Below, piece by piece: positions 11,448-60,409 of a DNA stretch of 64,000 nt. The DNA is from Escherichia phage UFV-AREG1. Under the pieces are notes generated by a model. The model made no database searches. It was not told where the DNA came from and saw nothing but the letters and a program-made list of their open reading frames with translations. Within the stretch, counting starts at the first letter, position 1, and each line of letters begins with the position of its first letter. A program made the translations under genes and the position numbers. The stretch lies in the sequence record KX009778; one strand, written 5' to 3'.

Positions 11448-12050
11448 TTATAGATTAAATCCTTCAAAATCAAGAGTATAGATAGTGTATGTTGAATACT
11501 TTTTATACTCATATCTATCTGCAATTCTAAATACACTTCCAGCTGGTATCATTACTTCTTGTTCATCTGAAACTAATTCCATATTACGATAACGATGGCT
11601 ATCCGGAAACTTAAAGTTTGGATTGTATTCTTTACAGCGTAGAGCTTTTATAGCATACTCCTGGAAATTGAACACCATAGGAGCTTTGAATTCAAAAATA
11701 ACTTGTGTGTTATACTCTAAACCTGAAGCAAAATGCAGAGCTATATTTTTATCATATGAAGCTGATACGACTTTATCAAATGTAATAATATCAATTCCTT
11801 GATTTAACACCTGCTTAGTCTCAGCTGGAACACCTCTCCAAAGAGGTTTATCGTTTGGAACCAAACGAGATTTGATTATTTCATTTAACCAAGTATGGTC
11901 ATCTGGTTTGTTGGTAATACAATGAATTAAAAGTTCAATTTCAGATAAATTAAACCCTTCAGAAAGTAATTCTTCACGAATAGAAGCACGCACCGATGCA
12001 TCCATTGATTTGATTTTAAAATCTTTTAATTGCATTGCTGAATATTTCAT
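11448..12050 (-). CDS. modA: ADP-ribosyltransferase ModA
   Basis: 200 aa as T4 ModA; ART-like R / S-x-S / E elements (LWRGVP, SASYD, QEVMIPAG); synteny. Confidence 0.75.
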   Translation of the reverse strand: MKYSAMQLKDFKIKSMDASVRASIREELLSEGFNLSEIELLIHCITNKPDDHTWLNEIIKSRLVPNDKPLWRGVPAETKQVLNQGIDIITFDKVVSASYDKNIALHFASGLEYNTQVIFEFKAPMVFNFQEYAIKALRCKEYNPNFKFPDSHRYRNMELVSDEQEVMIPAGSVFRIADRYEYKKYSTYTIYTLDFEGFNL

Positions 12051-12682
12051 TCAACTACCTCAATATCATACACTTTAAATGTTCCAAATGAATCATGTAA
12101 TTTTTCTTTTGAAATAGAAGTTATTTTATACTTTCCAATTGGAATCATCCATTCTTGTTCACGCACAATCATCATTAAGTTATCAGTACGTTCTGAATCT
12201 AATCCATCAGTATCTTCATATGTATACTTAAACTCAGTATTAGGAGAAGAAAGTATAATATCGCTGATATGGTCAGAGTAATTAAAAGCTTTATCAGTTT
12301 TTAAGCGAAGTACTATTTCAGTGAAATATTCAGCATAAGAAAAAGAACACGCTGTATGCAAACTAGTAGTAAATGAATCTACTCTGTTCGTTGAAAACAC
12401 TTCTCCAACTTGTAAATCTTTAATGAGTTCTTTTGTCGATTTTGATATACCACGATATAGCTGATAAGGCGATTTAGTTAAATGTTTTTTAACGATTTTA
12501 TTCAACTGCTGATGAAGAGCTTCATTCTTTTTGGCTTCCATACATTGCCAAAGAACTGACTGTTCAAAGTCAGTAAATTTTTCACAGACCTTTTTATACA
12601 TATCATATTGAAAATCAACGCTTTCAGCTTTTATAGATAACTGTTCAACATCTACAAGATTAATAATCATGATAGCCTCCAT
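12047..12682 (-). CDS. modB: ADP-ribosyltransferase ModB
   Basis: 211 aa; ART-like elements (LYRGIS, STN..TTS, EQEWMIPIG); adjacent to modA; early promoter 12697-12726. Confidence 0.7.
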   Translation of the reverse strand: MEAIMIINLVDVEQLSIKAESVDFQYDMYKKVCEKFTDFEQSVLWQCMEAKKNEALHQQLNKIVKKHLTKSPYQLYRGISKSTKELIKDLQVGEVFSTNRVDSFTTSLHTACSFSYAEYFTEIVLRLKTDKAFNYSDHISDIILSSPNTEFKYTYEDTDGLDSERTDNLMMIVREQEWMIPIGKYKITSISKEKLHDSFGTFKVYDIEVVE

Positions 12683-17528: not shown

Positions 17529-17885
17529 TTAACCTCTATTCATAAAAGCATTAAAAATTTGGTCATCAATAGAAGGTGCAGCGATATTTTCTGCATCATT
17601 TAGCAAATCATTAATTTCATCAGATAGCATAACACATGTACCTTTATTTCCTGTAATTGTTACTGCGCAATTACGAACGTTTTCTTTATTAAATTTTAGG
17701 TTAATATTTTCGTAATGAAAATCCTTTAATGCTGAATATATTTTTAAAATAAAATTGTCTTTTACTACAATAAACCCAACCTCACTATTAAAACGTGGTT
17801 CATGGAAACTGTAATAAACCTTTTCATCTATAAAATCGTATGAAATTTTTTCCATTTTTAAATATGAAAATTCAGAACTATACAT
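17529..17885 (-). CDS. hypothetical protein
   Basis: 118-aa ORF. Confidence 0.5.
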   Translation of the reverse strand: MYSSEFSYLKMEKISYDFIDEKVYYSFHEPRFNSEVGFIVVKDNFILKIYSALKDFHYENINLKFNKENVRNCAVTITGNKGTCVMLSDEINDLLNDAENIAAPSIDDQIFNAFMNRG

Positions 17886-17897
17886 ATTAACCTCTAA

Positions 17898-18191
17898 TTA
17901 CTCACCTACCACTTCAGCGATGATATTTTTATTATTGAAGTTTTTATCACAATACAGAACGTAATTATACTGCATTACACCACCAGACTTAAGCTGTTTT
18001 TGTACTTCAGCTTTCATTTCAGGGCGATCACGCTCAACGATATTCATAATATCCGCTTCAATTTGAGTTTCAACTTCAGTCTGATCCGCAGTCATAGACC
18101 ATTCACACAAATCTTTATCATATCCTGCCATAGCAGGCTGAGCAGCACAAGAAGCCAAAGCAAAAATTGTAGCAAAGATAAATTTTTTCAT
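17898..18191 (-). CDS. sp: Spackle periplasmic protein (superinfection exclusion / lysozyme inhibitor)
   Basis: 97 aa with signal peptide MKKFIFATIFALASCAAQPAMA; matches T4 Sp as recalled; early promoter 18220-18249. Confidence 0.8.
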   Translation of the reverse strand: MKKFIFATIFALASCAAQPAMAGYDKDLCEWSMTADQTEVETQIEADIMNIVERDRPEMKAEVQKQLKSGGVMQYNYVLYCDKNFNNKNIIAEVVGE

Positions 18192-56591: not shown

Positions 56592-56804
56592 TCATTTTTG
56601 TCCTGTATTTACTTTATGCCGGTGCACGGCCTTAACTTTATCAAGGTATTTTTCAAAATTTCGCAATCTAGTATAGTCTGCCGGAGATTGGTTGAGTGAT
56701 ACTTCTCGACGCAAAGCTGAAATGATATTTCCAACTTCCCTACGAATTTCATCTAATTGAAGAACAGTAAGATTGCGAAGTTGCTTTTCAGTTAATTGCA
56801 GCAT
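56592..56804 (-). CDS. hypothetical small protein (rI.1 position)
   Basis: 70-aa ORF between tk and rI. Confidence 0.45.
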
Positions 56805-56846
56805 ATATACCCCTTTAGTTAGATAAACCTATTTATAACTTTTACA

Positions 56847-57428
56847 CTAACCGAGCTTTTTAGTTAATTCATTCCAATGTTTTCTGCACAAAGAAACATA
56901 AATTTCATCACCAATACAGATTTGATTACCTTCTTTAACTGGTGTTCCATCTTCCATTAATCGAGCCGTCATAATAGCTTTTTTACCGCAATGACAAACT
57001 GCCGTTAGTTCAATAAGTTTATCTGCAATCGCCAAAAGTTCTTTAGAACCTTCAAATAATTTTCCAGCGAAATCAGTCCTTAGTCCATAAGCCATAACAG
57101 GAACATTATATGTATCAACAATTCGGCTTAATTGATGCACCTGTTCAGTTTTTAAAAACTGAGCTTCATCTACAAATACGCAATGAATATCTTTTTGTGC
57201 TTCAGCCCATTTATAGAACTCGAAAATATCCATATCATCTGTAATAATATTCGCTTCCTGTTTAATTCCAATGCGAGAAACGACTTCACAGACAGAATCG
57301 CGAGTATCAATAGCAGGTTTAAGAACTAATACACTCATTCCGCGTTCTTTATAATTATGCGCAGCAGTCAAAAGAGAAGCAGATTTTCCAGCATTCATTG
57401 CTGCATAAGTAAAAATTAAACTCGCCAT
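56847..57428 (-). CDS. tk: thymidine kinase
   Basis: 193 aa; MASLIFTYAAMNAGKSASLL P-loop and CHCGKKA zinc site match T4 Tk as recalled. Confidence 0.9.
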   Translation of the reverse strand: MASLIFTYAAMNAGKSASLLTAAHNYKERGMSVLVLKPAIDTRDSVCEVVSRIGIKQEANIITDDMDIFEFYKWAEAQKDIHCVFVDEAQFLKTEQVHQLSRIVDTYNVPVMAYGLRTDFAGKLFEGSKELLAIADKLIELTAVCHCGKKAIMTARLMEDGTPVKEGNQICIGDEIYVSLCRKHWNELTKKLG

Positions 57429-57429
57429 C

Positions 57430-57618
57430 TTAGTCCTTAGTTAAATTTTCTAAATATGTTTCTAAATCATTTTCAGCTTTATCGATAGATTTTACTAATT
57501 CGTAGTATGTTTCAGCATCTCCATAATCCGAAGCCAATTCAAAAGATAAATCTCGTTCTAAACTAATAATTTCGCTGATTAAAAATCGTATTTCATTCTT
57601 TTGTTCGCGAGTAATCAT
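57430..57618 (-). CDS. hypothetical small acidic protein
   Basis: 62-aa ORF. Confidence 0.4.
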   Translation of the reverse strand: MITREQKNEIRFLISEIISLERDLSFELASDYGDAETYYELVKSIDKAENDLETYLENLTKD

Positions 57619-57821
57619 AAGGAATCTATATAATCAATAAGTTCTTGTTCTTTATCGTCTAAATCTTTACACAGTTCTTCATATTCATCGGTATTAAAAG
57701 GACCGCATTCATCACAAACTTTTTCCAATTCATTGTTTTTATCCATAACTTCATGAATAAGAGAAAACAGTCGGTCTTTTTGTTCTTTACTTAAACTCAT
57801 AACCATGTCACCTTTAAGCAA
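57615..57821 (-). CDS. hypothetical small acidic protein
   Basis: 68-aa ORF. Confidence 0.4.
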   Translation of the reverse strand: MLKGDMVMSLSKEQKDRLFSLIHEVMDKNNELEKVCDECGPFNTDEYEELCKDLDDKEQELIDYIDSL

Positions 57822-58009
57822 TATTCTTCTACGTGTTGTTTACGTTTATTTTTATCTATAAAAGTATATTCAACATATTCGCCGATATACCATTTATCGG
57901 TGTTGTGTTGACTTTTTATAGGGCATTTAGTTACTCGTGTTTCGGTCCAGTGTCGAATAATTTCCGCTTTATTTTTAGGATCAAACGGATGCGGGTAATG
58001 TACTTTCAT
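57797..58009 (-). CDS. hypothetical small protein
   Basis: 70-aa ORF. Confidence 0.4.
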   Translation of the reverse strand: MKVHYPHPFDPKNKAEIIRHWTETRVTKCPIKSQHNTDKWYIGEYVEYTFIDKNKRKQHVEEYCLKVTWL

Positions 58010-58460
58010 AATCCACCACTATTAAATCAATATCAGGAGTAAACATGTCGATTAATTTAGAAACCTTATCCCAATCACCGCCAGCAATACCACAACCTAT
58101 GCGTGGAATGTAAATTACTGGTTTAAACAAAAGGGTTTCTGCCTGTAGATTTAATTCTATCATGCAGTTTACTAAAGCACCATAATCAAGATTAGGACCC
58201 GGTTCGTATTGTGTATACAGGTTATAGCATATACCAAATCCTGTAGGATTATGTTTAAAAACAATAGACATATCGCCTAATTTATCACGAGAACCGTACT
58301 CAGTAGTGGTTTTATCTATTTCTAAAATTTTAGGATAGGCTCTTGCTAATTGACCCGCTACACCTGAACCCATAGTATGAAAACAGTTGCACCCGTGCGC
58401 AATAATATTACCTTGAAGAAATAGGGCGACAATATCGCCCTTGATATATTTTACAATCAT
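57981..58460 (-). CDS. macro-domain protein (ADP-ribose binding/processing), tk.4 position
   Basis: 159 aa; macro-like N-terminal pattern GNIIAHGCNCFHTMGSGVAGQLARAYP. Confidence 0.6.
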   Translation of the reverse strand: MIVKYIKGDIVALFLQGNIIAHGCNCFHTMGSGVAGQLARAYPKILEIDKTTTEYGSRDKLGDMSIVFKHNPTGFGICYNLYTQYEPGPNLDYGALVNCMIELNLQAETLLFKPVIYIPRIGCGIAGGDWDKVSKLIDMFTPDIDLIVVDYESTLPASV

Positions 58461-58798
58461 CTAGTACTCAATCCTCGATTATAAGAATCTACCAAACGGT
58501 CAACCATTGAATGACAAGCGGCTTTATCTTTCTCCTCCGCAACTGAACATTCTAAGGTATTCCACTTTTTAGCATATCGTTTTAATAAAGTATCGTTCTT
58601 GTATCTACTTGTTTTATCTCTTTCTCCGTCTTTATATGCATATATTAATTTCTGCGCAAATTCAGCTTGGCATGCTTTATTTTTCCCACAATAATCCGCG
58701 GCAGTACGGTTTACATACTCTCTAACTTCAGAATATGATATATCTGCTAACGCAGAAAATGAAATTAATCCTACACATAAAACCAAAATTTTAGTCAT
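58457..58798 (-). CDS. secreted protein (vs position)
   Basis: 113 aa with signal peptide MTKILVLCVGLISFSALA; synteny. Confidence 0.45.
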   Translation of the reverse strand: MTKILVLCVGLISFSALADISYSEVREYVNRTAADYCGKNKACQAEFAQKLIYAYKDGERDKTSRYKNDTLLKRYAKKWNTLECSVAEEKDKAACHSMVDRLVDSYNRGLSTR

Positions 58799-59336
58799 TT
58801 ACTATTTCCAAAAGTTTATTATTTTTAAGGTAGTTAGCCTTTTCTAGGACTTCAGAAGCATATTTAGAACCAGCTTTAACATTCCATCCCGAGTTATAAG
58901 AGGATATAGCTTTTCTTATATCACCCTTATGTATATTTAACCAATAAGAAAGTTCAATGTACGCCCAGGAAGCTGAATTGGACCGTTTATTCAACATTCT
59001 TTTTATTTCGGCATCGGTCATATTATAACCAAGTTCCTTAACTCTTGCTCGCATGGTCGGCAAATAATTTTGGAACATTCCGTAGGCATGATGCTTTGGT
59101 TTAGATTTTAAATTAACTCCGGCAGAGCTTTCTTGCCATAAAATAGCAGCCATTATATGACCTAATCCGCTTTTATGGATATTTTTGTGTGTTTTATATT
59201 TTCCATCCTTAGAAAATTGTTCCCCGAATTGATACGCGTAACGCATGTTATCGAGTTGGACATTACTGAAAGTATGCTCGGAGCTATGCGCCATCATTGA
59301 AATGGCCAATAGACCAGCGAGTAGTGCTTTTCTCAT
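58791..59336 (-). CDS. secreted lytic-transglycosylase-like protein (SLT domain)
   Basis: 181 aa; signal peptide MRKALLAGLLAISMMAHS; SLT-like catalytic segment AAILWQESSAG. Confidence 0.6.
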   Translation of the reverse strand: MRKALLAGLLAISMMAHSSEHTFSNVQLDNMRYAYQFGEQFSKDGKYKTHKNIHKSGLGHIMAAILWQESSAGVNLKSKPKHHAYGMFQNYLPTMRARVKELGYNMTDAEIKRMLNKRSNSASWAYIELSYWLNIHKGDIRKAISSYNSGWNVKAGSKYASEVLEKANYLKNNKLLEIVND

Positions 59337-59343
59337 GCTTACC

Positions 59344-59805
59344 TCATTGAGTTTTAATTACTGCTTTAGAAGCCTTTCCTGGTAAACGACGACTGTTGAT
59401 AATGGCCATCCTACATTGAAGTGACGGGTCTTTGAACTTCGCATTGGGTTTACAAACTGTAAATCCAAGCCAAAGATTTCCATCTGTGATTTCTAAACGC
59501 CCAGGACGATATTCAACCCCATCAATAAAATCCTCGTCAATGTCAGGACGCGGAGGCATACTCAGGAATTCATTAACTTCTAAAACATGGTCTTTTATTT
59601 TATGGAATAATTCAAAAACATATGTCTCATCAATCTCCCGTTGAATTGCACGATCAAGAAGATGCTGAGAATATTTTAGATGAAACGATGAGACCCCTGC
59701 TGCTTTTGATGCCTCACGAATCTCATTGTTAATTTGACGAAACTCCGACTCAAAGTGACGACGGAGCTTATTTCGACGGATAAAAACTTCTGTGTTGATA
59801 GTCAT
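59344..59805 (-). CDS. regB: RegB endoribonuclease
   Basis: 153 aa; MTINTEVFIRRNKLRRHFESEFRQINNEIREA matches T4 RegB as recalled; early promoter 59833-59862. Confidence 0.85.
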   Translation of the reverse strand: MTINTEVFIRRNKLRRHFESEFRQINNEIREASKAAGVSSFHLKYSQHLLDRAIQREIDETYVFELFHKIKDHVLEVNEFLSMPPRPDIDEDFIDGVEYRPGRLEITDGNLWLGFTVCKPNAKFKDPSLQCRMAIINSRRLPGKASKAVIKTQ

Positions 59806-59832
59806 GTTATTCTCCTCTTAACTGATAGAAAA

Positions 59833-59862
59833 ATTATACCACAGTCAAGAGGAAAAGTAAAC
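59833..59862 (-). promoter_or_regulatory. early promoter for regB
   Basis: minus strand GTTTAC-18-TATAAT then GAGGAG RBS. Confidence 0.55.
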
Positions 59863-59864
59863 AG

Positions 59865-60185
59865 TTATTCTTTAAATCTAATCAATTTATTCATAGACTT
59901 TGTAACTTCTGCACGAACCTCATGCAGGTTTTTAAGCTGTTCAAGACGCTGCTCATAGTAAGCAATTTCATCTTCTTCGAGACAGTCCTGTGAATCTTCT
60001 TTAAGATAACGTGCATAGTCCTGGAAAGCTTTACGGACTACTTCTTGGAAGTCATCAAGACTTTGAATTTTCTTAGGAGCAACAGATACACGACGAGGGG
60101 CAGTATAATACTCATAACCAAACCCTGCGCTTAATTGAGCCATTAATATTTTTCCTCTGGTTGGAACACAGCACGACAAGCCCAC
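59865..60185 (-). CDS. hypothetical protein (vs.3 position)
   Basis: 106-aa ORF. Confidence 0.45.
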
Positions 60186-60409
60186 ATACTGGCTTCTTTG
60201 AGTTTCGTTTTAGCAATAGTTAACTGATCGAGGCTTTCAGCATAATTCTTTGCGAATTCACAGTCTTCACAATTATCCAGTGCTTCCCAGAATTCATCAT
60301 ATAAAGCATCAAAGATAAGTCCTAAACGAACTTCAGCGTCTTTGATAGCATTCACCTTACCGATTTTCTCTTCAGTGTGCGGCTTATAACCTTTAATGTC
60401 TTCAATCAT
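60143..60409 (-). CDS. hypothetical small protein (vs.4 position; candidate Acb2-like cyclic-nucleotide sponge by synteny only)
   Basis: 88-aa ORF; position corresponds to T4 vs.4. Confidence 0.45.

Follow-up and report, generated by a model that had tools for sequence, protein, structure and literature searches.

The tk.4 (adfM) gene of Escherichia phage UFV-AREG1: a Gln-type macrodomain, probably directed against DarT2-based defence, at a mosaic locus

The DNA considered here ("the window") is the whole analysed stretch of 64,000 nucleotides of Escherichia phage UFV-AREG1 (KX009778), a Tequatrovirus genome that keeps the T4 gene order regB - vs.1 - vs - tk.4 - tk.3 - tk.2 - tk.1 - tk. Phages PE37, WL-3, and teqdroes match its tk.4 region with 99% DNA identity, and the Tk.4 protein of phage FL33 is 100% identical to that of the window. 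According to the ORF list of the window, tk.4 begins with an ATG and its reading frame ends exactly at 57981 and 58460. The immediate surroundings comprise the following:

57981..58460, minus strand: CDS of tk.4 / adfM, 159 aa, a single-domain macrodomain best described as the Gln type of the TARG1/ALC1-like class
58457..58798, minus strand: vs (valyl-tRNA synthetase modifier), upstream of tk.4; ORF list; 93% identical to T4 Vs
57797..58009, minus strand: tk.3, 70 aa, downstream of tk.4; Pfam DUF7202, E=1e-36
59833..59861, minus strand: sigma-70-like promoter match, TTTACT-17-TATAAT with TG, upstream of regB; candidate only

The stop codon of vs and the start of tk.4 overlap in ATGA at 58457-58460 (ORF list and sequence), which suggests translational coupling of the two genes. 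At its other end, tk.4 overlaps tk.3 by 29 nt, compared with 4 nt in T4. The promoter match, the top score of a consensus scan, is a candidate start for a regB-vs.1-vs-tk.4-…-tk transcript, to be read alongside the result that the promoter and terminator scan found 10 promoter-like sites in 56700-60400 versus 14.5 in shuffled sequence, that is, no excess.

Several smaller features of this neighbourhood can be recorded here. A palindromic hairpin, AGGGCGACAATATCGCCCT, with a terminator-like score on both strands lies at 58423-58441, within the 5' end of the tk.4 CDS; it may be a chance occurrence, or a regulatory or recombination feature. Tk.1 and Tk.2 (57430-57821, minus strand) each match Pfam DUF7438 (E=1.8e-14 and 8.6e-19), and since they share this family we regard them as tandem paralogues of unknown function adjoining tk. 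Vs.1 (58791-59336, minus strand), annotated merely as "hypothetical protein" in the T4 RefSeq record, has a significant match to the SLT lytic transglycosylase domain (Pfam PF01464, E=4.8e-5), and its N-terminus resembles a signal sequence.

A preliminary description of this DNA, made from its letters alone, had placed a macro-domain protein at the tk.4 position, and the exact ORF, the Pfam Macro match, and the synteny with T4 all bear this out. Tk.4 scores 33.1 bits against Pfam Macro (PF01661; cut-off 22, E=5.8e-8), the match extending from position 2 to position 117 of the 118 in the profile, and it also matches PHROG 335 (E=1.6e-71). An AlphaFold2 model built with 45 homologues (mean pLDDT 94.7, pTM 0.89) has the three-layer alpha/beta macro fold, and a Foldseek search of the PDB returned the macrodomains of TARG1, BT1257, Poa1p, and DarG with E values from 4.5e-10 to 1e-7. 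Fold prediction therefore gave a macro domain, the opposite of the outcome that had been named as fatal to the claim. The glycine-rich loops that bind ADP-ribose and its diphosphate are conserved in Tk.4 as M30-G31-x-G33 and G122-x-G124-x-x-G-G, and ligand binding is predicted on this basis. By structure and by sequence, the nearest neighbours are TARG1, DarG, Poa1p, SCO6735/BT1257, and ALC1, and not MacroD, PARG, or viral Mac1. The dN/dS of tk.4 against its closest divergent allele, that of Dhakavirus IME281, is 0.07, which points to strong purifying selection; IME281 served as the reference because synonymous sites are saturated against T4, at 58% aa identity.

It is in the active site that Tk.4 departs from the better-known members of its class. 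The three segments concerned, each located by translation, are as follows:

58383..58397, minus strand: codons H22-G23-C24-N25-C26, aligned to DarG, SCO6735, and BT1257
58209..58223, minus strand: codons N80-L-Y-T-Q84
58071..58106, minus strand: codons P119-RIGCGIAGGD-W130, the diphosphate-binding loop

Within the first segment, N25 aligns with N22 of T. aquaticus DarG and N27 of SCO6735, and H22 with H23 of Poa1p and H24 of SCO6735; the H, the G, the N, and the second C do not vary among the 119 full-length homologues (119/119). Both hhalign and MAFFT place Q84 opposite the catalytic lysine K80 of DarG, and the column also holds the catalytic K84 of TARG1 and Gln85 of SCO6735. Here hhalign pairs NLYTQ of Tk.4 with NFPTK of DarG, the same columns holding LITKK in TARG1, and Q84 is invariant throughout the 121 family sequences (121/121). 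The profile-profile alignment of 44 Tk.4-family sequences with DarG-type macrodomains (M. tuberculosis, T. aquaticus, Thermosipho, and PhiKZ gp104) reached 98.5% probability. In the third segment, P119, G122, G124, and W130 are invariant among full-length members of the family, and G122/G124 correspond to G126/G128 of SCO6735. Tk.4 carries PRIGCGIAGGDW at the position of the PRIGCGLAGG of the SCO6735 type, and the loop PRIGCG[IL]AGGxW is common to Tk.4, BT1257, and SCO6735, whereas TARG1 has …GLDRLQW and DarG has PPLGxGNGGLxW. Counting residues in the 5E3B sequence, V25/N27/Q85/G126/G128 of SCO6735 become G23/N25/Q84/G122/G124 in Tk.4; Q84 and N25 match Gln85 and Asn27 both directly and by way of BT1257. 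When the conserved catalytic residues that the preliminary description proposed to check are examined in this way, the active-site asparagine (N25) is kept, but the catalytic lysine of DarG is absent and Gln84 stands in its place. From these alignments, the description that fits Tk.4 best is that of a TARG1/ALC1-like macrodomain of the Gln type, like SCO6735 and BT1257, and not that of a DarG copy.

What such an active site can do is known from SCO6735 of Streptomyces coelicolor (PDB 5E3B), which cleaves thymidine-linked ADP-ribose off DarT-modified DNA (PMC9411070) and takes uracil-linked ADP-ribose off RNA as well (PMC13036486). Its Q85A and Q85E mutants are inactive, N27S is nearly so, and G128E is weakened; its authors proposed that hydrolysis is started by a water held by the backbone, with the glutamine keeping the distal ribose in place (PMC9411070). 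Tk.4 has the Lys-to-Gln state and the PRIGCG loop in common with SCO6735 and with BT1257 of Bacteroides (PDB 2AFC/2FG1), but is just 26-27% identical to them. It also does without the 5-6-residue, lysine-bearing "mobile loop" (Lys89) that follows the glutamine in SCO6735 and has been tied to processivity on DNA (PMC9411070). Both the window Tk.4 and T4 Tk.4 have a gap after the Gln, of 6 columns relative to BT1257 and 5 relative to SCO6735, and no Lys (QYEPGPN vs QHGMKTGSKGAP). In addition, SCO6735 is a DNA-damage-induced chromosomal gene, whereas Tk.4 is phage-encoded and expressed during infection.

Against the DarG macrodomains (T. aquaticus 5M31/5M3E, M. tuberculosis 5M3I, and Thermosipho 7OMU), Lys80 of the FPTK motif is replaced by the Gln of NLYTQ, and the loop reads PRIGCGIAGG, compared with PPLGxGNGG. 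DarG has two domains; Tk.4, at 159 aa, has one, lacks the C-terminal DarT-binding domain, and has no neighbouring darT, its flanks being vs and tk.3. A darT gene was also sought beside a Pelagimonas homologue (P0096) in one bacterial genome and was not found there; this homologue is an orphan among housekeeping genes, which speaks neither for nor against a toxin-antitoxin origin. In human TARG1 (OARD1, PDB 4J5S), the Lys84/Asp125 dyad corresponds to Gln84/Ala126 of Tk.4. Yeast Poa1p (PDB 6LFQ), a characterised ADP-ribose-1''-phosphate phosphatase, shares the HxCNC motif, with H23 opposite H22 of Tk.4 and S30 opposite T29, but aligns poorly to the centre of Tk.4 and weakly at the C-terminus, where no counterpart of F152 could be placed. 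By sequence, Tk.4 is about equally near to Poa1p and DarG, and its substrate preference is thus not to be read from homology alone.

Much about the function of this gene has been published for T4, and here we must credit that work. T4 lacking both adfA and adfN remains resistant to DarTG2, from which a further anti-DarTG2 factor could be predicted (PMC11825919). In a HIDEN-SEQ preprint, a T4 transposon library was challenged on a DarTG2-expressing host, with tk.4 as the sole significant hit, and T4 became sensitive to DarTG2 once tk.4 had been cleanly deleted (bioRxiv 10.1101/2025.11.20.689424). The preprint gives tk.4 the new name adfM (anti-DarT factor, macrodomain) and remarks upon a structural likeness to the DarG of M. 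tuberculosis; of an enzymatic removal of ADP-ribose from DNA, its authors write only that it "seems likely" (bioRxiv 10.1101/2025.11.20.689424). Several GenBank records already call tk.4 "macro domain protein" or "phosphatase," and macro domains occur in 41% of myoviruses (PMC9503650). Given this public annotation and the published T4 phenotype, the identification itself adds nothing new.

T4 Tk.4 (NP_049723) occupies the same slot between vs and tk.3, has 155 aa compared with 159, and aligns with the window protein end to end without gaps (58% aa identity from one end to the other, E=1e-70). The family-invariant residues H22, N25, Q84, G122, G124, and W130 are all common to the two. It is important to remember, however, that the DarTG2 phenotype was demonstrated for the T4 allele, whereas that of the window allele is assumed by orthology, and that transfer is limited in that the tested allele differs from the window allele at 42% of residues.

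The name itself calls for caution. PhiKZ gp104, also named AdfM, strips DarT2-made ADP-ribose from DNA in vitro, an activity that N23A lowers (PMC13309987, Cell Rep 2026). It resembles Tk.4 in being a free-standing macrodomain of comparable size encoded by a phage, and the two have their name and proposed role in common; unlike Tk.4, to which it is 22% identical, it is of the DarG-like Lys type (N23/K78, FPTK), is imported into the phage nucleus, and has been characterised by direct biochemistry. On the NCBIfam DarG model NF048014, whose cut-off of 250 bits is set for the full two-domain DarG, gp104 scores 137.8 bits, T4 Tk.4 scores 30.3, and the window Tk.4 scores 27.8 (model positions 2-142 of 338). 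With scores so far apart and so low an identity, the gp104 of PhiKZ and the AdfM of T-even phages are, on the sequence comparison, non-orthologous and were recruited independently from different macrodomain lineages. Two groups thus gave the name AdfM independently (PMC13309987; bioRxiv 10.1101/2025.11.20.689424), and it is a trap for annotation transfer. We had also weighed whether the acidity of Tk.4 (pI 5.0, charge -5) speaks against a DNA substrate, and dropped the idea because the DNA-active gp104 is equally acidic (pI 5.05).

In the reading that we prefer, tk.4 would be expressed early, as part of the regB-vs-tk block. Host DarT2 ADP-ribosylates thymidines in single-stranded phage DNA and so blocks replication (for background, see PMC11825919). 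The ADP-ribose would be bound in the macrodomain cleft of Tk.4, where Gln84, held by Asn25, would position the distal ribose, the Gly122/Gly124 loop would grip the diphosphate, and an activated water would attack. Hydrolysis of the bond between ribose and thymine would restore replicable DNA, Tk.4 acting as an orphan antitoxin, and the chemistry would probably be that of SCO6735 and not the lysine type of DarG and TARG1. That the window allele confers the anti-DarTG2 phenotype seen in T4, and does so by de-ADP-ribosylating DNA with SCO6735-like chemistry, we consider likely, by analogy with the T4 allele and with SCO6735. The activity of PhiKZ gp104, a different phage macrodomain, on DarT2-modified DNA and the purifying selection on tk.4 lend this further support. 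The absence from the Tk.4 family of both the catalytic lysine of DarG/TARG1 and the mobile loop of SCO6735, the low score on the DarG model, and the comparable closeness to Poa1p weigh against it. The preliminary description had also raised the idea that the protein counters host ADP-ribose-based defences; the T4 tk.4 genetics (in preprint) and an active site like that of the thymidine-ADP-ribose hydrolase SCO6735 support it.

Its companion idea, that Tk.4 tunes the modifications imposed by the phage itself, starts from a correct observation. The two ADP-ribosyltransferase genes are present where they had been described (11448-12682):

11448..12050: ModA, 98.5% identical to the T4 protein
12047..12682: ModB, 96.6% identical to the T4 protein

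With both intact in this genome, Tk.4 might be thought to erase the marks that Alt, ModA, and ModB leave on RNA polymerase, S1, and EF-Tu (or the RNAylation by ModB) and thereby to time the infection, and the Legionella macrodomain MavL is reported to be arginine-specific. We hold this to be most improbable. The marks made by Alt, ModA, and ModB are arginine-linked, and a review table assigns the removal of such marks to DraG-like hydrolases (PMC8120803), whereas the TARG1-like class is documented on Glu/Asp-linked protein and on thymine- or uracil-linked ADP-ribose (PMC9411070, PMC13036486), a documented range that does not include the arginine linkage. A distance of 45 kb separates the mod genes from tk.4, they belong to another transcription unit, and the sole tk.4 phenotype in the T4 screen arose under DarTG2 (bioRxiv 10.1101/2025.11.20.689424). 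Because of the arginine linkage, the 45-kb distance, and a fitness loss in T4 that is specific to DarTG2, the tuning idea finds no support, and the presence of phage ADP-ribosyltransferases in a genome with tk.4 is probably coincidental.

Two further explanations concern what the cleft does with its ligand. Tk.4 might be a clean-up enzyme for small metabolites, either an ADP-ribose-1''-phosphate phosphatase like Poa1p or a deacetylase of O-acetyl-ADP-ribose, with the effect on DarTG2 being secondary; the database labels ("phosphatase," "A1pp phosphatase motif") and the closeness of Poa1p, with its HxCNC motif, lean this way. T4 repairs RNA by means of Pnk and Rnl1, which leaves no 2'-phosphate, and we therefore know of no source of ADP-ribose-1''-phosphate in T4 infection. 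Moreover, the invariant Gln84, Asn25, and glycine pair are the very residues that SCO6735 needs for the hydrolysis of thymidine-ADP-ribose, and insertions in T4 tk.4 lost fitness specifically when DarTG2 was present (bioRxiv 10.1101/2025.11.20.689424), so that we judge metabolite clean-up as the primary role improbable. Please note, however, that a phosphatase or deacetylase activity is compatible with DNA de-ADP-ribosylation, and both could coexist in one protein. The missing catalytic lysine invites a non-catalytic alternative, in which Tk.4 would be a reader or sponge of ADP-ribose, or an inhibitor of DarT2, that shields the DNA, sequesters a signal, or blocks the toxin in the manner of AdfA on DarT1. 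This is decidedly improbable: SCO6735, with the same Lys-to-Gln state, is a highly active, Gln-dependent hydrolase (PMC9411070), every equivalent of a catalytic-site residue is invariant across the 121 homologues, and a single domain of 159 aa leaves Tk.4 without a DarT-binding domain of the DarG style.

The preferred reading, hydrolysis of ADP-ribose from thymidine in DNA, concerns a gene whose allele in this phage has a history of its own. The flanking proteins rI, rI.1, Tk, Vs, Vs.1, and RegB are 93-100% identical to those of T4, but identity drops to 89% in Tk.1, 82% in Tk.2, 73% in Tk.3, and 58% in Tk.4. In a sliding-window comparison, 57800-58400 (tk.3 and most of tk.4) is 89-97% identical at the nucleotide level to Dhakavirus IME281 versus 47-67% to T4, and in its flanks the relationship is reversed, with 92-100% to T4 versus 45-77% to IME281. 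The nucleotide identity of tk.3 is 94% to IME281 versus 74% to T4, and most of tk.4 is unalignable to T4 at the DNA level. Taken together, these values indicate that a cassette of ~600 bp spanning tk.3 and tk.4 arrived by recombination between genera; the likely crossover point is the conserved 5' end of tk.4 (58300-58460). As a separate observation, tk.3 was transferred together with tk.4 here, and Dhakavirus VR5 is without tk.3, its tk.4 being followed by a tk.2-like gene.

The tk.4 family occurs in 2,776 of the 50,697 records of the phage collection, and among Tequatroviruses it falls into a class of the window type (at least 90% identity, 311 records) and a class of the T4/T2 type at 58%. 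Such a pattern is what one would predict for an accessory or anti-defence gene that can be swapped. One may go further and regard tk.4-tk.3 as an exchangeable anti-defence cassette at a diversifying arms-race locus, in which this allele may differ from the AdfM of T4 in substrate range and would employ a lysine-free chemistry so far undescribed in phages. Its targets might then include other DarT variants, uracil-linked ADP-ribose on RNA, or other defences based on nucleic-acid ADP-ribosyltransferases, and the overlapping, co-transferred Tk.3 (70 aa, DUF7202) might be a partner of Tk.4. As a whole, we rate this extended reading as rather unlikely.

Defence against phages by means of DarT toxins, which ADP-ribosylate DNA, is widespread, and T-even phages counter it in layers, with AdfA, AdfN, and now AdfM (Tk.4). 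What the present analysis adds is modest: a description of the T-even AdfM family as lysine-free and SCO6735-like and not a copy of DarG, a tk.4 locus that recombination has made into a mosaic, its two alleles deeply diverged within one phage genus, and three residues singled out for mutation, namely, Q84, N25, and G124. Because there are two such diverged classes, we recommend that results obtained with the T4 allele not be carried over by assumption to the 58%-identical allele of the window.

A related observation concerns a second anti-DarT locus of the same genome. At the position of T4 gene 61.2 (adfA, the anti-DarT1 factor), 17529-17939 on the minus strand, the only ORF is one of 118 aa (17529..17885). 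A tblastn comparison gives 31% identity with the last 130 residues of the T4 61.2 protein, which has 208 aa, and on this account adfA appears to be highly diverged or truncated in the phage of the window.
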